From contig OY771587.1 of the NCBI GenBank assembly GCA_963674825.1, positions 896,001 through 960,000 on the forward strand: 64,000 nt of DNA. Direction: 5' to 3'. Under the pieces are notes generated by a model that made no database searches, was not told where the DNA came from, and saw only the letters and a list, made by a program, of their open reading frames with translations. Below, in pieces: positions 33,101-45,396 of the stretch. Source of the DNA: Candidatus Cloacimonadales bacterium. Lineage in GTDB: Bacteria > Cloacimonadota > Cloacimonadia > Cloacimonadales > JAIOQZ01. The first letter of the stretch is position 1. Each line of letters opens with the position of its first letter. Both the position numbers and the translations under genes were made by a program.

Positions 33101-34342
33101 TCATATCTTTCTTGGTGGATTGATTTTGATGGTCATCACAGCGCTGATGAGGCACAGAACGCCGCAGATGGAAAATGCCAGCGGGAAATTGCCCATGTCA
33201 CCGAGAACGCCGCCGAGGATCGGCCCGAAAATACCACCAGCACCATAAGCAAGAAAGACGAACGGGTAATTTTCACCCACGAATTTCGAGCCAAAGGTAT
33301 CGGCAGTGATCGTAGGGAATAGTGCGAACGCGCCGCCGTAATTGAATCCGATCAGCGTTGCCACAAGATAGAGCATCCAAGGTGTTCCCGCCATGTATGG
33401 GAACAGCAGCATGAAAATACCCTGGCTGGCAGCCATGATAATGATGGACGGCTTGCGTTTGAGCTTGTCGCTGAAGACGCCCCAAAGGATGCGACCCAGT
33501 CCGTTTGCAAGGCTGAAAAACACCGCCATTGCAGTACCGGAGATCGCAGCAGCAGCAGCGAGATCCAGTCCCTTATTCTGCAGCGCTTCCATGGGATAGA
33601 GCTTCATGAGCCCGATCGACATAAGGCCTGCCATCGCGTTGAATACAAATACAAGGAAAATCAGATAGAACGGAAGGGTTCGCAGCATTTCCCCGCTGCG
33701 TAGATCCTTTCCGGACGATACCGCTTTCGCACTATCAGTTTTCTTATTAACGGCTTCTTTCTGCTCTTTCGGGAAAACCATCCAGATGCTCCCGATTAAG
33801 ATAAGAATAGCGAATAGCACACCATAGACGATAAACGTTGTGGAGATGCTGTAGCGTTCGATCAGATGTCCCCATTGACCAGCAAGCTTCACCCAGACCA
33901 TTGCCCCGAAGCCGAAGCCAGCCACCGACAAACCGCTGATAAGTCCCTTCTTATCAGGAAACCAGCGGATTCCGACCGCGATCGGCACTACATAGCTGAT
34001 ACCGATACCGCCACCACCGATCAATCCGATGAAGATCAGAATCGGCCAGAACGATGTCCCGCCGAAGAGACCGCCCAGAATATAACCGGCTCCCATGGTG
34101 ATCGCCGAGATGATCGAAAGACGACGCGGTCCTACTTTCGCAAGTTTCTTTCCTGCCAGCACCATGACCACCGCGAAGCTCACCAGACCGACAGAGAAGA
34201 CGATCTGCGTCTGAACCTTGCTCCAGCCGATTGCTGTCAGATAAGGCGTAAATACCGACCACGCATAGATTGCACCCAGACAAAGCTGGATGAGAACTGC
34301 TCCGAAAATGACCAGCCAGCGATTCCCTTTGTTTTCAGTCAT
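33101..34342 (-). CDS. MFS transporter, oxalate:formate antiporter (OFA)-like
   Basis: About 12 TM; QLCLGAIYAWSVF, RWFPDKKGLISG..VAGFGFG, NGLGRILWG.FSD. Confidence 0.9.
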   Translation of the reverse strand: MTENKGNRWLVIFGAVLIQLCLGAIYAWSVFTPYLTAIGWSKVQTQIVFSVGLVSFAVVMVLAGKKLAKVGPRRLSIISAITMGAGYILGGLFGGTSFWPILIFIGLIGGGGIGISYVVPIAVGIRWFPDKKGLISGLSVAGFGFGAMVWVKLAGQWGHLIERYSISTTFIVYGVLFAILILIGSIWMVFPKEQKEAVNKKTDSAKAVSSGKDLRSGEMLRTLPFYLIFLVFVFNAMAGLMSIGLMKLYPMEALQNKGLDLAAAAAISGTAMAVFFSLANGLGRILWGVFSDKLKRKPSIIIMAASQGIFMLLFPYMAGTPWMLYLVATLIGFNYGGAFALFPTITADTFGSKFVGENYPFVFLAYGAGGIFGPILGGVLGDMGNFPLAFSICGVLCLISAVMTIKINPPRKI

Positions 34343-34355
34343 ACGCTGCTCCGGA

Positions 34356-35603
34356 CTACAGGCCGTACTTGTCGATGATTTCTTGCTTGGTCAATCCGAG
34401 AATACCGTATTTTTTACCAACTTTGATGAAGGCTTCCAGCGCTTTGTCGAGGTGTTCTCTTTCATGTGCGGCAGATATCTGCGTGCGGATACGAGCCTTG
34501 CCCTGCGGTACCACCGGGAAGAAGAAGCCGATCGCGTAGATGCCTTCGTCATACAGATCGCGGGAGAAATCCTGCGAAAGCTTGGCGTTGAAGAGCATTA
34601 CCGGCACGATAGGCGTATCACCTGGCTGAAGGACGAATCCTGCATCCTGAAGACCTTTGCGCCAGTATTCGGTATTGGCTTCCAACTTGTCGCGGCGTTC
34701 GGTGGTCTTGGAGAGAATCTCCAGAACCTTGAGCACACCGGAGACGACCACCGGAGCGATGGTGTTGGAGAAAAGGTACGGTCGCGCTTTCTGACGGCAC
34801 ATCTCCACGACTTCCTTACGACCGGATACACATCCGCCGGAAGCGCCACCAAGAGCCTTGCCAAAGGTTGTTGTGATAATATCGATCTTACCCATCACGC
34901 CGCATTTCTCGTGGGTTCCACGACCTGTCTTGCCGATGAAGCCAGTAGAATGGGAGTCGTCCACAAACAGCATAGCATCGTATTTCTCGCAGAGCGCGAC
35001 CATCTCGTCGAGCTTCGCGGTATCGCCGTCCATAGAGAACACACCGTCGGTGATGACTACTTTGAGCCGTTTATCGGCGTGCAGAATCAGCTTTTTCTCG
35101 AGATGCTTCATGTCGGAGTGCTTGAAGGTGTCGTGCATAGCTGGAGCCAGCCGGATACCGTCGATGATGGAGGCGTGTACCAGACGATCGGAAATCATCA
35201 CGTCCTCGTCGGTGAGGATCGCTTCAAAAACGCCGGCGTTGGCGTCCATGCAGGACGGGAAGAGGATGGTGTCTTCAGTGCCGAGGAAATCGCTCACGAG
35301 CTTTTCGAGCTTCTTGTGGATGTCCTGCGTACCACAGATGAAGCGTACGGATGACATACCGTAACCACGGGTGTCGAGACCTTCATGCGCGGCCTGGATC
35401 ACGTCCGGGTGACTGGAGAGCCCCAGATAGTTGTTGGCGCACATGTTGATTACTTTCTTGAGGCTGGATCCGGTGGGGAATTCCACCTCGATGTCCGCCG
35501 CCTGCGGTGAATGTATGAAGCGTTCCTGTTTGAAGATGCCTTTGTCATCGATCCCTTTGAGGGTATCCAGATAGACTTGTCTCACTTTGTCGCTGTAAGC
35601 CAT
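34356..35603 (-). CDS. kbl: Glycine C-acetyltransferase (2-amino-3-ketobutyrate ligase), PLP alpha-oxoamine synthase family
   Basis: CANNYLGL, GMSSVRFICGTQDIH, HASIIDG, DGVFSMDG, TFGKALGGASGG, ARIRTQISAAH. Confidence 0.9.
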   Translation of the reverse strand: MAYSDKVRQVYLDTLKGIDDKGIFKQERFIHSPQAADIEVEFPTGSSLKKVINMCANNYLGLSSHPDVIQAAHEGLDTRGYGMSSVRFICGTQDIHKKLEKLVSDFLGTEDTILFPSCMDANAGVFEAILTDEDVMISDRLVHASIIDGIRLAPAMHDTFKHSDMKHLEKKLILHADKRLKVVITDGVFSMDGDTAKLDEMVALCEKYDAMLFVDDSHSTGFIGKTGRGTHEKCGVMGKIDIITTTFGKALGGASGGCVSGRKEVVEMCRQKARPYLFSNTIAPVVVSGVLKVLEILSKTTERRDKLEANTEYWRKGLQDAGFVLQPGDTPIVPVMLFNAKLSQDFSRDLYDEGIYAIGFFFPVVPQGKARIRTQISAAHEREHLDKALEAFIKVGKKYGILGLTKQEIIDKYGL

Positions 35604-35751
35604 AGTGTCGCTCCTTGTAAGGTTTTAGTGTCGTTGCTTTGATTTGGGCTGAACCAAACTTCCGAATGTTTGGGTCAGACGTCTCGTATCGAGTACCCAT
35701 ATCAAAGCAACGATCCCGACCGAGGCTTAACCCCGGCCGGGTAAAAAGCTG

Positions 35752-36009
35752 TTACTGGCCGAGGTGCTTGAGCACGAGCTCGGTGATAAGGTTTACGTTG
35801 TCGAATGCTTCCGGGGTCGCTTCCTCGTCGGGAAGGCTGATTCCATATTTGTTTTCCAGGAAGCGTTTGAGTGATACCATCGAAAATGAATCGACCAGAC
35901 CACCGGATATAAGCGGTGTGTCGAATCCTACCTCATCATCATCGTCCTCTACATATTCTTCGATCACGTATTCGAGCACGACTTCCTTGATTTCTTCACG
36001 ATCTGCCAT
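35752..36009 (-). CDS. Stand-alone acyl/aminoacyl carrier protein
   Basis: 85 aa, very acidic; GLVDSF phosphopantetheine-site motif; SD AGGAG. Confidence 0.9.
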   Translation of the reverse strand: MADREEIKEVVLEYVIEEYVEDDDDEVGFDTPLISGGLVDSFSMVSLKRFLENKYGISLPDEEATPEAFDNVNLITELVLKHLGQ

Positions 36010-36182
36010 AGTTGTTTCTCCTTCCTCGATTTATAGAGTTATTGCTTGGTTTTTTATACTTCATTCGATTCCCAGATTCGCACTGGATCATCACTCATCG
36101 GATTCCCGGACCAATTCATGTGAATCAAGTACCCATCCGTCAAATACTTTCAGCAAATCTTTGCACTTTATTCACCGTATGC

Positions 36183-36214
36183 AAAATCATCCGGGCGAGA
36201 TACCACCCGGATGA
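36183..36214 (-). terminator. Terminator-like hairpin after the lipoprotein array
   Basis: TCATCCGGG...CCCGGATGA then T4 on the minus strand. Confidence 0.6.
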
Positions 36215-36265
36215 CACCATATTATTCGCTAATCACATTACGTTTCAATCTCACGGTCGTTCTTA

Positions 36266-37018
36266 CTAGCGCTGGTTCATTACCTGATTTAGCAGAGTTC
36301 TGGCATGTTCATGGGGATCAATACTGCGTGCAAATGTACCCCAATTTGCAACATTGTAGGTGAATGAAAGGAATACCAAATCTCCAACCACCACCCAGTT
36401 TTCCTGATCGACCGACAAGTTTAGATATTCTGAAGTAGGATCGTTGAACCCGTGCAAGTTCGCTGCCAGCGTGTATGCTCTGAGTGCAGGGTCAATATAA
36501 ATTGAACCGATAGAGCGCGACTCGTCATCTGGGCCAAGGATGAACAGGGATTGTGCGTCGGAATTAGCTTCCAACGTCCAGGTCAATTCGTAATTTGTCT
36601 GTCCATCCCACGTATCATCGATATTGAGTGTAGGAATATAGGTCATCGTCAAAGTAGCAGTCTCGGCATAAGCGCCGTTGTTGATATCGAGATCGTAGGC
36701 ATAACTTTGGCCAGGCGTAAATTCGTAATTCGCCCACCATTCATTGTACATCTCCTGATAATACATCGAAACATCTTCGCCATCAATGGTAAGATTACAG
36801 GATTCAATGAGATCTGTCTCATCCAGCGCAAAAACGTAGATGTATCCATAACGGAACTCCGGACTTTGCGAGAATGTAACCGCATAGCGCCAGTCTGATG
36901 TAGGGGGCTGGGATATTCCGCCGCCGTTATCGTCGTCGTCATCGTCATCCGATGAGCAGGACACCATCATGCCCAATGCGAGCATCACGACAAGAAAGCC
37001 AATAATCAGTCGTTTCAT
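36266..37018 (-). CDS. Lipoprotein, tandem paralog 5
   Basis: MVSC-SSDDDDDDD; YEFTPGQSY, LTWTL, QENW shared with neighbours. Confidence 0.85.
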   Translation of the reverse strand: MKRLIIGFLVVMLALGMMVSCSSDDDDDDDNGGGISQPPTSDWRYAVTFSQSPEFRYGYIYVFALDETDLIESCNLTIDGEDVSMYYQEMYNEWWANYEFTPGQSYAYDLDINNGAYAETATLTMTYIPTLNIDDTWDGQTNYELTWTLEANSDAQSLFILGPDDESRSIGSIYIDPALRAYTLAANLHGFNDPTSEYLNLSVDQENWVVVGDLVFLSFTYNVANWGTFARSIDPHEHARTLLNQVMNQR

Positions 37019-37078
37019 TTGTTTCTCCTTGGTTGAGGGAGTTACAGTCTATATGCAGCAAAGGATAACGCCGCATTG

Positions 37079-37708
37079 TTATTTGTCATTTTCGATCATC
37101 CTCGAAAGCTGTTCTATCGTCCGCCTGGCAAGATCCAGTGGATTCAGCCTGTAATCAATGTATCCGTAGTTCTTCATTACACTCGTCTCTGCGACCACGT
37201 AGAATCCATCTTCCTCCGACCAGTTTTTTTCCTGAAGGTTGAAATGGATGAACTCGGTGGAAGGATCGTCGTAATCCATGAATCCGGCAGGAATAGAATA
37301 TCGCCGGTCTGACGGAAGCATATAAATTGTGGCAATGGGATCATCCCGAGCCGCGCCGGGGCCAACCACATACAGGGATTGCGTTCTCGCATTTCTTTGC
37401 AGCGACCATTCAAGCTGGAAATCGCTCTGACCATCCCAGGAATCAGGGAAGTTTGCGTCCGGGATATATGGCATCGTGAACGTCCCCGAGCGCTGATATG
37501 AATCGTTGATCACGACTACATACGAATATATGCTCCCCTGCACAAACGGATAGTAGGCCGAAACCGAATCCGAATCCCGGTAATATTCAAGCGGGACTTC
37601 TTCGATGATAACGCCGGTACTTCCACCACTGGAGCCATCGGAGCTACAGGAGATCACAAGGATCAGAATAAGCAAGAATGCGGTGAATGCAGTGGCAAAG
37701 CGATTCAT
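37079..37708 (-). CDS. Lipoprotein, tandem paralog 4 (shortened N-terminal part)
   Basis: VISC-SSDG; YPFVQGSIY, LEWSLQRNARTQ, EKNW. Confidence 0.85.
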   Translation of the reverse strand: MNRFATAFTAFLLILILVISCSSDGSSGGSTGVIIEEVPLEYYRDSDSVSAYYPFVQGSIYSYVVVINDSYQRSGTFTMPYIPDANFPDSWDGQSDFQLEWSLQRNARTQSLYVVGPGAARDDPIATIYMLPSDRRYSIPAGFMDYDDPSTEFIHFNLQEKNWSEEDGFYVVAETSVMKNYGYIDYRLNPLDLARRTIEQLSRMIENDK

Positions 37709-37753
37709 GATATCTCCCGGATATGGATTGCATGGTCAGAAATTGCAATTTTA

Positions 37754-38425
37754 TCAATGACACGTCAATGATTTTTGTTCAGAAATCCTATCGTCGTTGC
37801 TTCCGTAGGCAAAGCTGTAGAAGAAGAATTCCCCGGAAGTCTCCCAATTGCACTCCACAAGTTGAATACTGATGGTCGATTCACCGGTGTAGCCGAAGAG
37901 CTCCGCGTCCATGGAATAGCTTCGATCCCTGGGATTCATATAAATGAGCGTCTTGTAGGGATAGGGGTCGTCGCGGCCAGTATCAGCGTTCTCGAAATAC
38001 AGATACTGGGTTCTGGCGTCTTTATCCATATTCCATTCAATTTTAGTATTCTCACCCGCGACGTATTCATGAGGAAATTCGCATTCCGGTTCGCAGGCAA
38101 TCGTCAGATCAGTAATTTGATGGTAAATGCCATTGACAGTGATTTCGATATTATAAGTCTCACCTTCCTGGAATGGATAATACGCGAAATCGCGGCTGCA
38201 GGTCACCTCTTCCCCATCAATCAGGATACAGAGACTATTGATTGGGATCGAGCCGGTGAGGACTACATAGATCATCTGGCTCTGTGCCGACGCATAGACG
38301 GCGAAGCTGGATTGCGTGATGTCGGGGAGTTGGTGGATAGGATTCTCTTCCTCGTCGGAATCGAAAAGGTTGCAAGACAATAGCAGAAGCGACAGTAACA
38401 GGGCCAGTATGAAGATGCGTAGCAT
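37754..38425 (-). CDS. Lipoprotein, tandem paralog 3
   Basis: Start MLRIF after AAGGAG; LLSC-NLFDSDEEE; YPFQEGETY, IEWNMDKDARTQ, ECNW. Confidence 0.85.
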   Translation of the reverse strand: MLRIFILALLLSLLLLSCNLFDSDEEENPIHQLPDITQSSFAVYASAQSQMIYVVLTGSIPINSLCILIDGEEVTCSRDFAYYPFQEGETYNIEITVNGIYHQITDLTIACEPECEFPHEYVAGENTKIEWNMDKDARTQYLYFENADTGRDDPYPYKTLIYMNPRDRSYSMDAELFGYTGESTISIQLVECNWETSGEFFFYSFAYGSNDDRISEQKSLTCH

Positions 38426-38457
38426 GGATAAGTACTCCTTCAGATTCAGTATTTCAT

Positions 38458-39138
38458 TTATCTGGATGATTGCGGTGTAAACTCCTCGGTATCGGCATTG
38501 TAGCTTATGAAATAGAAATCGCCTTGCTGGATCCAATTGTATTCGGTAATGCTGACACGGATATTGGTATCGCCGGAATAACTCACCATCTCGCCGTTGA
38601 ATGTAAAATCACGCTGCTCGACGGGGAGGTAGCTGTAGAGATCGGAGACGCAGAATACGCTGTCGGTATCCACGAAGTTCTCGATTAGAAGCATCTGCGT
38701 CTGGGCATCGCAGTCGAGACTCCATGTGATCTCCGTGTAAATGCCGATCTCGAGACTGTCCGGAATCGAAAGCTCCGGTTCGCACACCATGGTTAGATCG
38801 ACAACCTGTCGTTTTGTGTCGTTTATGTTCACATCGATGGTGTAGCACTGGTTTGGTTCGAATGGATAATCACCTTCAAAAAGCGCGTAGTCTGCGTTTC
38901 GCCGAACCATGAACACGTCCGAGCCATTGATGATTACCTGTAAATTACCGATCTCCAACTCCGTGAAAGTAAAGACGCATATCGAGCCCCACGGGTACGC
39001 AACGATGTTGATGGTTTCTTTGTTGGACGGTAACGGATTTTCCATAAAATCACGATTGTTCTCATCAAACAGAGTGCAGGAAACGAGGGCAGTGACAGCA
39101 ACAAGTATCAGTATGAGATTGGTGGGTAGATTTTTCAT
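38458..39138 (-). CDS. Lipoprotein, tandem paralog 2
   Basis: LVSC-TLFDE; YPFEPNQCY, ITWSLDCDAQTQ, EYNW. Confidence 0.85.
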   Translation of the reverse strand: MKNLPTNLILILVAVTALVSCTLFDENNRDFMENPLPSNKETINIVAYPWGSICVFTFTELEIGNLQVIINGSDVFMVRRNADYALFEGDYPFEPNQCYTIDVNINDTKRQVVDLTMVCEPELSIPDSLEIGIYTEITWSLDCDAQTQMLLIENFVDTDSVFCVSDLYSYLPVEQRDFTFNGEMVSYSGDTNIRVSITEYNWIQQGDFYFISYNADTEEFTPQSSR

Positions 39139-39155
39139 GTAGGCAATACTCCATT

Positions 39156-39917
39156 TTATAGATTATCGGTGCGGGTTTTCCAAATTGTGTCAATGATCAT
39201 CTGTGTCCTTTTCATTCGTGCTTCAGGGCCGATATCTTTCATATTATACGAATGGTTCATGAACATATCATACGAATGGCTCATGAACCTGAAATCCCCC
39301 ACGATCTCCCAGTTATATTCTTCCAGGTCGATCGTCAGGTATGAATCGCCTGTGTGATGGAAGGTATCCGCGCTCAGCGTGTATTCGCGCTGTGAGCTGT
39401 GAACATAGACCATCTTCGCTTCGGGATTCTCCAGGCTGTCGGCGTTGGCGCTGTACAGGAAGCAGAAAACCTGGGTCTTCGCATCATGATCGAGGTCCCA
39501 CGTTAAATTCAAATCGACACCCTCTTCAAGCGAATCGGGAATCGCCAGCTCAGGGATGCATACCATTTTCAGATCGATCACACCATGATACTGATTATCG
39601 ACGGTAACATCGATGTGATAGACGCTGTTCGGCTGAAAATCGTAGAAACCTCCGAATCGAACCAGATTTCCGCTGTTCGCTGCCTCGTTTTCGATGTTTT
39701 GCCCATCGACAAATACACAAACAGTATCGACAGGCACATCCCAGTCACTGTATAAGGCAATGCTACCCCATTCTGGATGAACCGACACGATATAGGGTGA
39801 ATCGTCGACATAGGGAAGCGTGGTGATATCCGAATCGCTACTGTCATCGAACAAAGTACATGATGTCATGATGACACATAGGAAAATCACGATAATCTCA
39901 GGTAGATTACGAACCAT
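39156..39917 (-). CDS. Lipoprotein, tandem paralog 1
   Basis: MTSC-TLFDDSSD; YDFQPNSVY, LTWDLDHDAKTQ, EYNW; SD GGAGG. Confidence 0.85.
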   Translation of the reverse strand: MVRNLPEIIVIFLCVIMTSCTLFDDSSDSDITTLPYVDDSPYIVSVHPEWGSIALYSDWDVPVDTVCVFVDGQNIENEAANSGNLVRFGGFYDFQPNSVYHIDVTVDNQYHGVIDLKMVCIPELAIPDSLEEGVDLNLTWDLDHDAKTQVFCFLYSANADSLENPEAKMVYVHSSQREYTLSADTFHHTGDSYLTIDLEEYNWEIVGDFRFMSHSYDMFMNHSYNMKDIGPEARMKRTQMIIDTIWKTRTDNL

Positions 39918-40008
39918 TTTGCACCTCCATTCTTGTGAGCTTCACTTAAAACGACAATTGAAATTCGAAATATGGTTAATAATAAATGAATGTCAACGTA
40001 TTTTCGGC

Positions 40009-40036
40009 AAAAAAAACCGGGCGATTGCTCGCCCGG
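40009..40036 (-). terminator. Intrinsic terminator after the acetate ligase gene
   Basis: CCGGGCGA-GCAA-TCGCCCGG followed by T8. Confidence 0.8.
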
Positions 40037-40052
40037 ATATTTGACGCAATGT

Positions 40053-41759
40053 TTATTCGTCGTCTTCGAGGGTCGATGTGTCTCCAATCTCCTCGCCCCA
40101 CTCCTTCGCGTGAAGCAAGCGCCGCATGATTTTACCGCTGCGGGTTTTGGGCAGCGATTTGACGTATTCGGTCTCCTGCGGCATGGCGAGCGGCGAGAGT
40201 TTCTTGCGGATAAAATTCATGATCTTGAGCTCAAGATCCTTGGTCGGCTCGTAGCCTGGCTTCAGCACCACGAACGCTTTAACGACCTCCATGTTGACAT
40301 CGTCTGGCTTGGAAACGACTGCTGATTCCGCAACTGCTTCGTGTTCCAGCAGTGCAGATTCGACCTCGAACGGGCTCACCAGATGGCCGCCGGTGTTGAT
40401 CACATCGTCATCGCGACCCACGAACCAGAAGTATCCGTCCGAATCGATATAGGCACGGTCGCCGGGCAGATACCAGTTGTTCTGGAACTTACTCTGGTAG
40501 GTCGCTTCGTTGTTCCAGTAAGTCCGCATCATGGCTGGCCATCCCGGACGGAAAGCGATCAGGCCGATCTTGTCAGTCTCTTTGATCTCCTCGAATGTGG
40601 AGGTATCGACCAGACTTCCAGTGATGCCAGGGAATGGCCTTCCCATAGAGCCTGGCTTGATCTTCATGCCCGGGTAATTGGAGATCATGATGGAACCGGT
40701 CTCGGTCTGCCAGTAAGAATCGAGGAAAGCCCTGCCGAATACTTTTTCCGACCAGATCACCGCTTCTGGGTTGAGCGGTTCGCCCACGCTGGCCAGATGG
40801 CGAAGCGAGGATAGATCATACTTTCCAACCAATTCGTCGCCGGCTTTCATCAGCGAGCGAATAGCCGTTGGAGCGGAGTACCACACCGTAATGCCGTAGC
40901 GCTCGATAAACTGGTACCATGATTCCGCGGAAAAACCCGTATCAAGTACGCACTGTGTAACGCCGAGGCTCCAGGGGCCAATAATCCCGTAGGATGTGCC
41001 GGTTACCCAGCCAGGATCGGCGGTACACCAGTAAACGTCATCTTCATTGAGATCCAGAACCCACTTCGTAGTGAGATACTGCGAGATCAACGAGTAATGA
41101 ACGTGCTTAACGCCCTTGGGTTGGCCGGTGGTTCCGGAAGTGTAGTGTAATACTGACGGTGATTCGGCTTTGGTAGGATAAATCTCGAGATCCTGAATCT
41201 TGTCAGCCGTCTCCAGATCAAATGCCACTTCCCGCTCTTGGAGCGGTTTCTTGCCGTCGTAATCCACCACGATGATGTGTTTGAGGTAGGGTGTCTTCTC
41301 GAGAATTCTGCGTACTTTGTTGACGTGCTTTTTCTGGGTGATGATCGCGGTTGTCTCCGCGTTATCGAGCCTCACAAGCAGCGATTCGTCGCCAAATGCT
41401 GAGAAGAGCGGCTGCGCGATCGCTCCGATTTTGAGAACACCCAGAAAACCGATGTAGAGTTCGGGAATCTTGTCCATGAAGAGGCAGACGCGATCTTCAT
41501 TCTTGATTCCCAGGTTGCGAAGGAACTGTCCCACGGTATTGCTGGCGATTCTGATGTCGTTGAAAGTGTACTGCTTTTTCGCACCTCCGAGACCTTCCCA
41601 GTAGAGTGCGATACGGTTTCCGTTACCCTTCTCGCAGATTCTGTCACTACAATACCAGCCAATGTTAATTACGTTGCCGTCCTGGTATTCGAGTTCTTTT
41701 TCGGAAATGGACCAATCGAAGTTTTTGATGCGTTCATCATAGGATCCGATATTGGACAT
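40053..41759 (-). CDS. acsA: AMP-forming acetate ligase (acetyl-CoA synthetase family)
   Basis: YTSGTTGQPKG, YWCTADPGWVTG, WQTETG, LPKTRSGKIMRR. Confidence 0.9.
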   Translation of the reverse strand: MSNIGSYDERIKNFDWSISEKELEYQDGNVINIGWYCSDRICEKGNGNRIALYWEGLGGAKKQYTFNDIRIASNTVGQFLRNLGIKNEDRVCLFMDKIPELYIGFLGVLKIGAIAQPLFSAFGDESLLVRLDNAETTAIITQKKHVNKVRRILEKTPYLKHIIVVDYDGKKPLQEREVAFDLETADKIQDLEIYPTKAESPSVLHYTSGTTGQPKGVKHVHYSLISQYLTTKWVLDLNEDDVYWCTADPGWVTGTSYGIIGPWSLGVTQCVLDTGFSAESWYQFIERYGITVWYSAPTAIRSLMKAGDELVGKYDLSSLRHLASVGEPLNPEAVIWSEKVFGRAFLDSYWQTETGSIMISNYPGMKIKPGSMGRPFPGITGSLVDTSTFEEIKETDKIGLIAFRPGWPAMMRTYWNNEATYQSKFQNNWYLPGDRAYIDSDGYFWFVGRDDDVINTGGHLVSPFEVESALLEHEAVAESAVVSKPDDVNMEVVKAFVVLKPGYEPTKDLELKIMNFIRKKLSPLAMPQETEYVKSLPKTRSGKIMRRLLHAKEWGEEIGDTSTLEDDE

Positions 41760-41803
41760 AGCTTTCTCTCCTTCAGACGCGGCAGCGCCTGTGTCTTTAT
41801 TAT

Positions 41804-42178
41804 TTATAGTTCGAGTATAACCATTGCCATTGCCGTGGATTTCAAATGAGACAGCGAAACATGAATGGATTGAATTTTGTTCATTCGCACGAATTCGTCA
41901 ACCTTTCCATGCGTTTTTATCATTGGTTTGCCCAAATCATCGTTGGTAATCTCGATATCAGTAAACGTGACACCCTGCTGCCAGCCGGTTCCCAGCGCTT
42001 TCATCATCGCTTCTTTCGCTGCGAACCGGGCGGCGTAGCATTGGTCTTTCGATTTCCGGGATTCACACTCCCGAATCTCGTTATCGGTAAAAACCTTCTC
42101 GCGAAAGCCTTCCAGCTTGCTGATGCTTCTAAGGACTCGCTCCACTTCGATGTGGTCGATACCTACTCCAAAGATCAA
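41804..42178 (-). CDS. acpS: Holo-ACP synthase (AcpS-type phosphopantetheinyl transferase)
   Basis: GVGID, AARFAAKEA.MKALGTG, GKP, VSLSH; probable TTG start at 42178. Confidence 0.93.
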   Translation of the reverse strand: MIFGVGIDHIEVERVLRSISKLEGFREKVFTDNEIRECESRKSKDQCYAARFAAKEAMMKALGTGWQQGVTFTDIEITNDDLGKPMIKTHGKVDEFVRMNKIQSIHVSLSHLKSTAMAMVILEL

Positions 42179-42240
42179 CTTGCCCTCTTCAGCATAGAAC
42201 ATCCAAAGATCAAGCGTACTCCTTCAGTATAGCTGACGGC

Positions 42241-43203
42241 TTACAGCTGACCGGCTTTGAGCCTGGCAGTGAGCTTCTCGATCATATCTTTGGTCATGGC
42301 AGCCGTATCGTATGCAGGCTTCCAATCCCATTCTTCTCTTGCAGCGGAGTCGTCCATGCTGTTTGGCCAGCTATCAGCGATCGCCTGACGAACCGGATCG
42401 ACATCGTAGTCCATGGTAAATCCGGGCATTTCTTTTCTAATCGCTGCCGCGAGTTCTTCGGGATCGAAGCTCATGGCGGTGACGTTGAAGGCGTTGCGAT
42501 GGATCAGCCTTGCAGGATCGGCCTCCATTACGTCGATCGCAGCCTTGAGGCAGTCCGGCATGTACATCATGTCCATGAGGGTCCCCTCTTTGATGTAGCA
42601 TGTGTAGTGACCAGTCTTCACTGCTTCATAGAAGATATGCACCGAATAATCGGTCGTACCACCACCGGGAGGCGTAACGCTGGAGATGATGCCCGGATAG
42701 CGAACACCGCGAGTATCGACGCCGAAGCGCTTGTGATAATAATCGCACAGCAATTCACCGGCGACTTTGGTAACGCCATAGATAGAGGTCGGACGTTGGA
42801 TGGTGTCCTGCGGTGTGTTGTCCGGAGGTGTGGTGGGGCCGAAAGCACCGATCGAGCTGGGAGTGAACACCGCTGCGCCGGTTTCCTTCGCGATAGTCAG
42901 CGTGTTCAAGAGACCGTTCATGTTGACGTTCCAGGCGACTTCCGGTCTCGCTTCCGCAACCGCGGAAAGGAGCGCTGCCAGATGATAGATCGTGTCTATT
43001 TTATGCTTCTTCACCACTTCGGCGAAGCGATTTGCGTCCAGGCAATCGATGACTTCATAGGGACCAGCCTCGACCAGGTCTCCGGTGAGGTCATTGCGGA
43101 TGTCGGACGCGACAACGTTTGATGCTCCGTAAATCTTACGAAGAGCTGCGACGAGTTCGGTTCCAATCTGCCCTGCGGCACCAGTTACAAGAATGTTTTT
43201 CAA
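42241..43203 (-). CDS. L-threonine 3-dehydrogenase, extended SDR (epimerase-like) type
   Basis: TGAAGQIG, HLAALLSA, PSSIGAFG, YGVTK, PGGGTTDY, IADSWP. Confidence 0.88.
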   Translation of the reverse strand: MKNILVTGAAGQIGTELVAALRKIYGASNVVASDIRNDLTGDLVEAGPYEVIDCLDANRFAEVVKKHKIDTIYHLAALLSAVAEARPEVAWNVNMNGLLNTLTIAKETGAAVFTPSSIGAFGPTTPPDNTPQDTIQRPTSIYGVTKVAGELLCDYYHKRFGVDTRGVRYPGIISSVTPPGGGTTDYSVHIFYEAVKTGHYTCYIKEGTLMDMMYMPDCLKAAIDVMEADPARLIHRNAFNVTAMSFDPEELAAAIRKEMPGFTMDYDVDPVRQAIADSWPNSMDDSAAREEWDWKPAYDTAAMTKDMIEKLTARLKAGQL

Positions 43204-43391: not shown

Positions 43392-45396
43392 CTACTTGAT
43401 CATCAGCGCTTTGCCTGTATATTCCTTGTCGCCAGCCGTAAGCCGGAACAAGTACGTTCCAGACGAAGCCTGCTTTCCATCCTGATCGCAACCGTCCCAG
43501 ACGATCTTGTGCTCAATACCGCCAGCCTGAATACCTCTAACATAACCGCGAACTTTCTCACCGCGGATGTTGTAGATATCCAGCTCGACAGCCACATCAT
43601 TCACCAGATAATAGCTGATCGCAGTCGAGGGATTGAACGGATTCGGATAAATAGAACGAATACCGGTAACCAGTACAGCATCCGGAACGTCCTGCTCTTC
43701 CCCACTGCCTGTGACTGTCAAAGTAACAGGTCCATATAGCTGCACCATACCGGAAAGATCTGTCGATTCCAGCCAGTAGTAGTACGTGTTATTGAGCGAT
43801 ACTTCGTTATCGATCAGTTCGTAGCTGCTTCCAGAAGATGAATTCTGAGCTGCGATCGGTTCTGCGTTGATACGGATCGCCGAATCGACATCTGATATTG
43901 TATTGCGAAGAATGTTGTAACCAAGCATATCGCTTTCGGAAGCTGTAGTCCACTGGATGGACGCAAAGCCCGATTGCGTCTGGGCAGCAGCGAAAGAAGA
44001 GAGCTCTACGGGCAACGTTTCGCTGCTGAGAATGACGTATTCACGTGTGTAGGCACGTCCTCCAGGATTTGCCGTGATGCTGACTGAGCCGGGAACGAAT
44101 TCGCCGATGTACTCATATTCCGTCCAGGTATTAGAGCCGTCATCATGCTGAAAGACACTTGAGGGCGTCTCACTCCCCCCCCAATAATAGGTAAGATTTG
44201 TGGTTACGTCACTTGGAAGTCCTACAGTGAAAGCGCCGATCACATCCTCGGGATAGGGTACAGCGAGTTGCGGTTGATCGGTGATCATACCCCACAAAGT
44301 AAATGCGGCAGGTTCGGACACAAATGAGTAGTCAATTGCAGGATTCCAGGGACCATCGCCGAGGTCAATAATTGGGAAAACCAGTTGATCTGGGCCTGTA
44401 CCACCGGTGATTACCTCTTGTGCAAAAACAATCGCGGAAGGGACTCCAGTTGGATCTGCCGGTTCCGACATTACTGTGTAGGTCTGTGTCCCCAGCGCCG
44501 GATAATCTTCTCCCGGCCCAAACGGTACGACGTACCAGCTGACAGTCTCACCCCAGCCTGCTTGTGGTAACGCGCAGTTGTAAACCATCTCACCGAGGTA
44601 GTCGATTGATTCGCCTAACTGTGACCCGTTACAGAACACATTGAAGCCAAAGACCATATCGATGCCTGCATAGTCCCAGCTAACGGTAACCAAACGAGGC
44701 ATATTCGTTTCGCCGTTCGCCGGGAAAATGGCGTTGCAGTCCGATTCAGGTGTGTCAAATGTCATATCCAGGCCATATGATGTACCGTTCGTATTCGTAG
44801 CTTTAACACGATAATGATAGGTTGTGTTGGGAGTCAGTCCGCCAAGCATGTGGAATACCTCGGTCAACGAACTGCCGGTAACTGGGCTCTGATCAGCCTG
44901 TACTGTCATGCCGTAATTGAGATCCGTACCATATTCGAATTCAACTGCCGTGCTTTGCCCCATAGCATTTACATAGCCCTGGAACATTGCAAATGTGGTG
45001 AAGATGTTCGTCGCTGTGTTCGTGATAGCGATGGGGTAGAAGCCCGGAATAGTTTCGAACGTGGAATCTCCGCCGTGAACAGTCCCTCCACTGTAGCTTC
45101 CACATATACGGAAGTGATAGGTTCTGAATGGTGTCAATCCCGTGATTTCGGCACTGCATTCGTGCATCCCATCAATACTATAAACCGATGTCGGAGTAGC
45201 ATCGACGTATGTTCCATAACTCATGTCAAGCCCATATTCGAACCAGACATCGACCATGTTATCCCAGGGCTGTAATCATCAATGGCTCTAACCTACCGGT
45301 TTGATTCAGATTATCTATTACCACATTGTCGTTTCCAACATTCGCTGAGAGTAACACGATAAAAACAAGAAAAATCACCGTGAAGATTCGATTCAT
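43392..45396 (-). pseudogene. Frameshifted secreted protein with FN3-like repeats and FlgD/T9SS-like C-terminal domain
   Basis: Signal-peptide ORF 45259-45396 is out of frame with the 621-aa ORF 43392-45257, which has FEYG repeats, LPVELSSF and YPNPFNP. Confidence 0.75.

Follow-up and report, generated by a model that had tools for sequence, protein, structure and literature searches.

A predicted carrier-dependent acetyl circuit between an acetate ligase and a 2-amino-3-ketobutyrate ligase in Cloacimonadota

Why would a small acidic acyl carrier protein (ACP) be encoded together with an AMP-forming acetate ligase (Acs) and a 2-amino-3-ketobutyrate ligase (Kbl), both of which are annotated as ordinary coenzyme A (CoA) enzymes? 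The question is raised by a 64-kb stretch of contig OY771587.1 of Candidatus Cloacimonadales bacterium (the window hereafter; coordinates without a prefix are positions in it, and C1 marks positions on this genome's contig). The initial annotation had proposed that Acs and Kbl exchange acetyl groups through a dedicated carrier, as part of a six-gene pathway including a threonine dehydrogenase (Tdh), a holo-ACP synthase (AcpS) and an MFS transporter. The exchange itself finds strong comparative support in near-complete gene co-occurrence, in a separate Kbl clade, here called Kbl2, and in an altered CoA adenosyl site. On these comparative grounds we consider it very probable that acs-acp-kbl2 is an acetyl circuit that depends on the carrier in place of CoA; the conserved unit is smaller than the six genes. 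The genome is a single contig, 99.6% complete.

We scanned species genomes with the window's carrier and examined the best 80 of 379 relatives, whose titles name Cloacimonadota, Bacteroidota, Aminicenantes, Elusimicrobia, Zixibacteria, Acidobacteria, Ignavibacteriales and others. In this set of 80 loci kbl accompanies the carrier in 79 (the missing one is a contig end) and acs in 78, one of them a 44-residue fragment and some frameshifted or cut by a contig end. An acpS gene adjoining acs is found in 61, tdh in 19, and the lipoproteins that separate acs from acp in the window in two; an ordinary second Kbl lies within 26. The MFS gene of the window gave two true orthologues and one distant match, and recurring neighbours were SatP (14 loci), an ActP-like symporter (4) and a Pat-type acetyltransferase (7). 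Given the co-occurrence counts and the recurring acetate transporters, the conserved unit appears to be (acpS)-acs-acp-kbl2, with acetate as the compound exchanged. The recurrence of acs, acp and kbl, often with acpS, thus bears out the core of the proposed neighbourhood; that tdh, acpS and the MFS gene are dedicated members is not supported. The tdh gene is single-copy here, near-universal in the phylum (113/121 genomes) and, as the genome's only copy, common to Kbl2 and ordinary Kbl; acpS, the only AcpS-type copy found, adjoins tdh also in genomes without the module; and the MFS protein is probably a lineage-specific acetate carrier, whose place SatP or ActP-like genes fill elsewhere.

A sample of 121 Cloacimonadota genomes gave the same picture. 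This Acs type (at least 73% identity) and the window's kind of carrier, type A (at least 69%), occur in an identical set of 24 genomes, where they are adjacent; 23 of these carry Kbl2, and the remaining one, G030, has another oxoamine synthase instead. Kbl2 is present in 38 of the 121 genomes, every one of which has a type A or a sister type B carrier (38/38), and the ligase is found in 23 of them. Among the 83 genomes without Kbl2, only G030 has either carrier (E 1e-10). The 15 Kbl2 genomes without this Acs all possess the type B carrier, and kbl2 adjoins it in 11. Kinship among genomes and loci means that all of these co-occurrence counts overstate the number of independent events. Kbl2 was rare in a draw of 250 Bacteroidota genomes, the phylum of locus L077, with 1/250 besides the centre of the draw. 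The synthase of G030 belongs to a third oxoamine-synthase type, 35-41% identical to Kbl2. This type adjoins tdh, takes the place of kbl2 behind acs-acp in G030, and in three loci comes after kbl2 (positions of the type: L099:6711-8018, L144:6668-7894 and L145:5695-6921, also L048, L050 and L055).

Kbl2 itself passes the curated Kbl cut-offs (TIGR01822, 580 bits against 493; NF005394, 573 against 460). A phylogeny of Kbl for a distinct clade and a look for a second kbl in the genome had both been suggested as checks. The Kbl2 proteins of both carrier contexts form one branch (SH-aLRT 100, stem 0.94) in a quick tree over 66 of 129 sequences, and an ordinary Kbl is encoded at C1:2459420, as Kbl2 usually coexists with an ordinary Kbl in its genome. 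Nine active-site residues have been named for Kbl of C. necator (PDB 7bxp; PMC9814548). Since all nine (N50, V79, H136, S185, H213, K244, L272, F273 and R368) are invariant in 91/91 Kbl2 sequences, glycine/2-amino-3-ketobutyrate chemistry is expected. Differences appear where the adenosyl moiety of CoA would sit. The site 14 residues after the catalytic His, equated by sequence offset from that His rather than by structure overlay with the adenosyl-pocket residue Lys156 of 5-aminolevulinate synthase (ALAS; PMC4615937) and with E. coli R150, is Arg in 34/34 ordinary Kbl and in only 6/91 Kbl2; 18 further ordinary Bacteroidota Kbl all have the Arg. In Kbl2 this site is followed by an invariant Asp (91/91; His157-Asp158-Thr159 in the window protein), and an Arg three residues before and a Val/Ile one residue before the catalytic His are likewise found in 91/91 (Arg140 and Val142). 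The window protein further has an N-terminal insertion and a C-terminal extension. The adenosyl-site changes are suggestive of carrier use.

The type A carrier has 85 residues, a GLVDSF motif with Ser41, and 22 acidic against 6 basic residues. It matches the stand-alone carriers PltL and DltC in the PDB, and also AcpP, and reaches 19.1 with the Pfam PP-binding model, just below the cut-off of 20.8. It scores far below the cut-off for a fatty-acid AcpP (TIGR00517, 21.6 bits against 70.45); the housekeeping ACP of this genome adjoins fabF at C1:3229925, and other carriers are also encoded. Ser41 is invariant across 44 aligned relatives. Its presumed partner Acs lies above the AcsA cut-off (NF003313, 759.8 bits against 729) and is of the Bacillus AcsA type, matching 9g79 better than 8rpk. 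Its acetate pocket (V252, T253, V325, W350) and Lys543 are retained, and over 76 Acs sequences the pocket (V310, T311, V386 and W414; residue roles from PMC10455477) is kept in 95-100%; the equivalents of Gly524 and Lys609 are also kept. The Arg526 equivalent is Leu in 76/76 (Leu460 in the window) and Arg in 3/3 Bacillus-type enzymes, and Acs carries basic patches not found in Bacillus AcsA. Clade-specific basic residues are K148, K305 and R518-K520 in Acs and R79, R140, K171, R303 and K406 in Kbl2; they are predicted to point towards helix II of the carrier. At C1:2601033-2603708 this genome also encodes a CoA-ligase/GNAT protein of the Pat type, which shares 67% identity with the one adjoining the module in 7/80 loci and is a possible regulator of Acs Lys543.

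A parallel to the module was met on plasmids. The best plasmid matches to Acs were, apart from one unannotated record, either Bacillus-type acsA genes or, in 5/5 non-Bacillota records opened, an acsA-pdhA-(pdhB)-E2-acp cassette, whose AcsA has His-Leu/Met at the Arg526 position, as in the module Acs. Like the module, the cassette combines an AcsA-type ligase, a private carrier and an enzyme that forms an acetyl thioester; it differs in having pyruvate dehydrogenase (PDH) instead of Kbl, and a carrier of another family. Thus ligase, private carrier and acetyl-thioester-forming enzyme would be a recurring design. We found no publication on the cassette in the accessible literature. The acsA-pdhA-pdhB-E2-acp cassettes lack E3, are spread over plasmids of five genera and three phyla, and some lie beside USP, BON or Hsp20 genes (L104, L105, L108, L109, L111). 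A phylogeny of Acs had been suggested as a check: it recovers three Acs groups as separate branches, with no firm order at the base.

The second context of Kbl2 is that of the type B carrier, which is 34-43% identical to type A and occurs in 21 of the 121 genomes, all with Kbl2 (21/21). Its genes stand beside or near a gene for an MBOAT acyltransferase and a periplasmic partner, often inside polysaccharide loci. A metagenome scan with this carrier returned 32 loci, some duplicated and many short; in the 30 strong ones kbl2 lies directly upstream in 19, an MBOAT gene downstream in 25 and acs in none. At these type B loci, which lack acs, no loader other than Kbl2 is visible. That the 15 Kbl2 genomes without this Acs pair it with a type B carrier beside an MBOAT suggests that Kbl2 may load this carrier from 2-amino-3-ketobutyrate. 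Complete kbl2-carrier-MBOAT-partner cassettes were seen in polysaccharide loci of genomes without this Acs (L084-L095, L150-L179). In the genome studied here a type B carrier and MBOAT pair lies at C1:969414-970782 (L182:2414-3779), 11 kb beyond the window end, with no ligase adjoining it; its carrier (C1:970552-970782) is 43% identical to that of the window, two periplasmic partners and an SPT-like gene are nearby, and the set is a candidate second client of Kbl2.

How would the circuit run? Every step is reversible in principle. AcpS would arm the carrier with phosphopantetheine, and Tdh, by the chemistry of its family, would oxidise threonine to 2-amino-3-ketobutyrate. From this Kbl2 and holo-ACP would form glycine and acetyl-ACP, Acs in reverse would turn acetyl-ACP, AMP and pyrophosphate into acetate and ATP, as Acs1 of Syntrophus does with acetyl-CoA (PMC4992975), and the monocarboxylate carrier would swap acetate with the medium. 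Taken whole, direction included, this scheme, in which threonine yields glycine, acetate and ATP, is our preferred reading, though a tentative one that falls just short of probable. The cleavage direction is argued from several observations. Kbl2 is the sole visible loader in the MBOAT context, and the PDH of the plasmid cassettes runs one way, toward the acetyl thioester. No MBOAT hit was obtained in 13/24 module genomes (those without a match were partly counted from tallies), which leaves Acs as the only visible partner of acetyl-ACP there. A threonine synthase gene (thrC) with a proposed homoserine-kinase-type neighbour is found in 11/24 module genomes against 10/91 others; TIGR00260 over-calls in Cloacimonadota, so that the 21 counted hits are those with E <1e-69 outside family f12, with six genomes left out and the neighbourhood checked for two of the hits. 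The genome further encodes the glycine cleavage P protein and a membrane pyrophosphatase; a soluble pyrophosphatase of family I or of the DHHA2 type was not detected in it, much as S. aciditrophicus has a membrane and no soluble pyrophosphatase alongside its ATP-forming Acs (PMC4992975).

A wider proposal, which we regard as possible rather than probable, makes Kbl2 a new carrier-loading enzyme. The 2-amino-3-ketobutyrate would come from threonine, or from acetyl-CoA by way of the ordinary Kbl, and would be converted into a pool of acetyl-ACP separate from CoA, which would feed both ATP formation by an ACP-specific Acs and, with the same Kbl2 loading the type B carrier, the acetylation of surface polymers by the MBOAT acyltransferase. 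Under standard conditions the cleavage of threonine is energetically favourable.

Several observations weigh against these proposals. For Acs, the 3'-phosphate residue Arg584 is retained in 76/76 sequences, the Arg191 loop is absent from the Bacillus type too and does not separate Acs from Bacillus AcsA, and Arg526 makes no direct contact with CoA (PMC10455477); nor does the tree settle whether the Kbl2-linked and PDH-linked Acs are sisters. For Kbl2, one divergent carrier-linked protein (G277) lacks the His-Asp-Thr signature, and because a complementation screen of ALAS accepted His and other residues in place of the equivalent Lys (PMC4615937), the change at this site may lower CoA use and need not abolish it. 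At the level of pathways, ackA is present in 23/24 module genomes, and this genome has pta and an ordinary Kbl beside its ackA, so that ATP could already be drawn from threonine without the module. A common pool of 2-amino-3-ketobutyrate would partly short-circuit the insulation offered by the carrier. This genome has no homoserine route, and the ActP-like symporters (4/80) and Pat-type acetyltransferases (7/80) are the usual partners of an Acs that activates acetate.

The last two points belong to the main rival, a circuit running backwards, in which Acs would spend ATP to load acetate and Kbl2 would condense acetyl-ACP with glycine, after which Tdh would make threonine or the ordinary Kbl would hand the acetyl group to CoA. 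The private carrier would then keep the route out of a futile cycle with Pta-Ack and help to drive the uphill condensation. We judge this unlikely, although several observations favour it: neither homoserine dehydrogenase nor thrB nor a canonical thrC was found in this nearly complete genome; uptake-type transporters and Pat lie nearby, the acetate transporters adjoining the module (SatP in 14/80 loci, ActP-like in 4/80); and the related AasR-AcpR-Spt system runs that way (PMC9386255). The distribution of ackA fits futile-cycle avoidance as well, since it is present in 23/24 module genomes and absent from 10 of the 14 other genomes with an ordinary CoA-type Acs, the two Acs types never occurring together. 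Threonine synthesis, one of the two outcomes first proposed, thus stays viable here and is weakened across the phylum, where thrC with the proposed homoserine kinase is commoner in module genomes; a replacement of thrBC by the module phylum-wide is not supported. Ligase-free Kbl2 still accompanies a carrier in 15 genomes, and fermenters with Ack would make their acetate internally and need no importer. The only thrC-like hit of this genome (C1:3161485-3162750; L183) was rejected as threonine synthase, as it scores 165 bits, below the cut-off, has no tblastn match to ThrC of E. coli or G086, and encodes a PLP enzyme flanked by a macro-domain gene on one side and a xanthine-dehydrogenase-type cluster on the other; similar hits occur in most genomes of the phylum. 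The order thrC then apgM-like 'proposed homoserine kinase' is seen at L120:3495-8711 and L121:4697-8974, with TIGR02535 above cut-off in L120. Replacement of Ack by the module was rejected, given ackA in 23/24 module genomes; the combination of an ordinary Acs with no ackA resembles Syntrophus and may mean that Acs forms ATP in two families of Cloacimonadota.

Acs and Kbl2 might instead be two alternative loaders of the carrier for a third acetyl consumer, an MBOAT or another acceptor, with no net flux between threonine and acetate. Type B carriers adjoin MBOAT genes and are confined to Kbl2 genomes, and this genome has such a pair; we nevertheless find the idea improbable, with 13/24 module genomes showing no MBOAT hit, which also led us to reject a type A carrier serving MBOATs only, and with no acceptor gene recurring beside the best 80 type A loci. 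It is more improbable still that Acs and Kbl are plain CoA enzymes of a threonine/acetate operon with a vestigial or regulatory small protein as passenger. Both do pass curated CoA-enzyme cut-offs and Acs keeps Arg584, but the surroundings of the carrier's Ser41 are as invariant as the residue itself, acpS is present in 61/80 loci, Kbl2 always occurs with a carrier while an ordinary Kbl is kept alongside, and AasR was likewise annotated as a CoA synthetase before it was tested (PMC9386255). The least credible of the readings, and a very remote one, is the synthesis of an amino ketone, in which a decarboxylative condensation of acetyl-ACP and glycine would yield aminoacetone or a derivative for secretion or signalling. 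Other alpha-oxoamine synthases decarboxylate and 2-amino-3-ketobutyrate decays to aminoacetone (PMC9814548); the active site of Kbl2, however, is identical to that of the non-decarboxylating Kbl, no tailoring or export gene recurs, and tdh is adjacent in 19/80 loci.

Within the window (Table 1) all six genes of the initial annotation are present on the minus strand over the proposed span and their family assignments hold, but they do not make a single compact unit, as five lipoprotein open reading frames (ORFs) separate acs from acp and a hairpin follows acs. The absence of fab and polyketide synthase genes is true of the window and not of the genome, which has them elsewhere. The best PDB matches of the tdh product are all L-threonine dehydrogenases, full length, with E 6e-133. 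A terminator scan gave 13 sites in total against a shuffle mean of 10.5, so the acs hairpin, a consensus match, is argued by shape and place only. The lipoprotein ORFs have lipoboxes and 24-35% mutual identity, and no Pfam or NCBIfam family matched them; the same array recurs with differing copy numbers at two loci of the same genus (L001, L005). Rfam returned six tRNAs only and no riboswitch over the window, and a promoter scan was near chance (23 against 16.7 +/- 4.5). The region 43392-45257 encodes a member of a very large protein family with a FlgD/T9SS-like C-terminal domain, found at about 200 further places in the genome.

Table 1. Features of the locus, in window positions
Feature	Position	Strand	Remark
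tdh, SDR-type L-threonine 3-dehydrogenase	42241..43203	-	only copy found in genome by tblastn
acpS, holo-ACP synthase	41804..42202	-	TIGR00516 above cut-off; only AcpS-type copy by tblastn
acs, AcsA-type AMP-forming acetate ligase, predicted acetyl-ACP synthetase	40053..41759	-	
Intrinsic-terminator-like hairpin just 3' of acs	40017..40036	-	8 pairs, 7 G-C, then T8
Five tandem paralogous lipoprotein ORFs	36266..39917	-	genus-level insertion, outside module
Lipoprotein ORF	39156-39917	-	
Lipoprotein ORF	38458-39138	-	
Lipoprotein ORF	37754-38536	-	probable start near 38422
Lipoprotein ORF	37079-37708	-	
Lipoprotein ORF	36266-37018	-	
acp, stand-alone acidic carrier protein, type A	35752..36009	-	attachment Ser41
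kbl2, carrier-linked 2-amino-3-ketobutyrate ligase clade	34356..35603	-	
SfMCT/OxlT-type monocarboxylate MFS	33101..34342	-	NF049980 326.5 bits, cut-off 320

The closest described system is AasR-AcpR-Spt of Caulobacter and other Rhodobacteria, in which an alpha-oxoamine synthase co-occurs with a specialised carrier and an AMP ligase, and whose ligase, once annotated as a CoA synthetase, acylates the carrier only (PMC9386255). By analogy the module would work in the same manner, yet it is no member, because its synthase is a Kbl and its ligase an Acs. Kbl2 scores 238-312 bits with SPT models whose cut-offs are 500-670, and Acs stays below the cut-offs of FadD-type models. Moreover, AasR-AcpR-Spt leads one way from a long-chain fatty acid and serine to sphingolipid, whereas the module has an Acs-family acetate pocket, the glycine site of Kbl and a place in reversible central metabolism, in anaerobes of other phyla. 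With the Tdh-Kbl pathway (kbl-tdh of E. coli; Kbl of C. necator) it shares the two predicted reactions, the nine residues and the TIGR01822 pass; Kbl2 is set apart by a separate clade at about 55% identity, the altered adenosyl site, extra segments, an obligate carrier neighbour and its usual presence in addition to an ordinary Kbl. Acs1 of S. aciditrophicus, likewise an AMP-forming Acs, converts an acetyl thioester with AMP and pyrophosphate to ATP in a cell without soluble pyrophosphatase (PMC4992975; bioRxiv 10.64898/2026.07.06.736832), but its substrate is acetyl-CoA and it replaces Pta-Ack, whereas the module Acs belongs to the Bacillus AcsA type, is linked to a carrier and coexists with Ack. 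Finally, the type B context resembles DltA-DltC-DltB-DltD and the O-acetylation by AlgI/PatA-type MBOATs in that the carrier is encoded next to an MBOAT and accompanied by a periplasmic partner. The best PDB match of its MBOAT is DltB, yet the scores are 177-205 bits against a DltB cut-off of 375, and the predicted loader is a PLP enzyme rather than an adenylation enzyme, with acetyl as the predicted cargo.

The openly accessible literature gave no account of the module, of acetyl-ACP used with a Kbl or of MBOATs fed by acetyl-ACP, and two surveys of Cloacimonadota do not mention the term acyl carrier protein. The module is real and widespread, and apparently undescribed. If our reading is true, a second acetyl pool would exist beside acetyl-CoA, held on a dedicated carrier in central amino-acid metabolism. 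It would occur in hundreds of uncultured anaerobes from digester, sediment and aquifer habitats, where current annotation treats these genes as coding for plain CoA enzymes, and metabolic models of these organisms would gain a pyrophosphate-dependent route to ATP, or a protected route of acetate activation. The carrier-MBOAT context, in turn, offers a candidate for the donor that supplies one class of MBOAT acetyltransferases from the cytoplasm.

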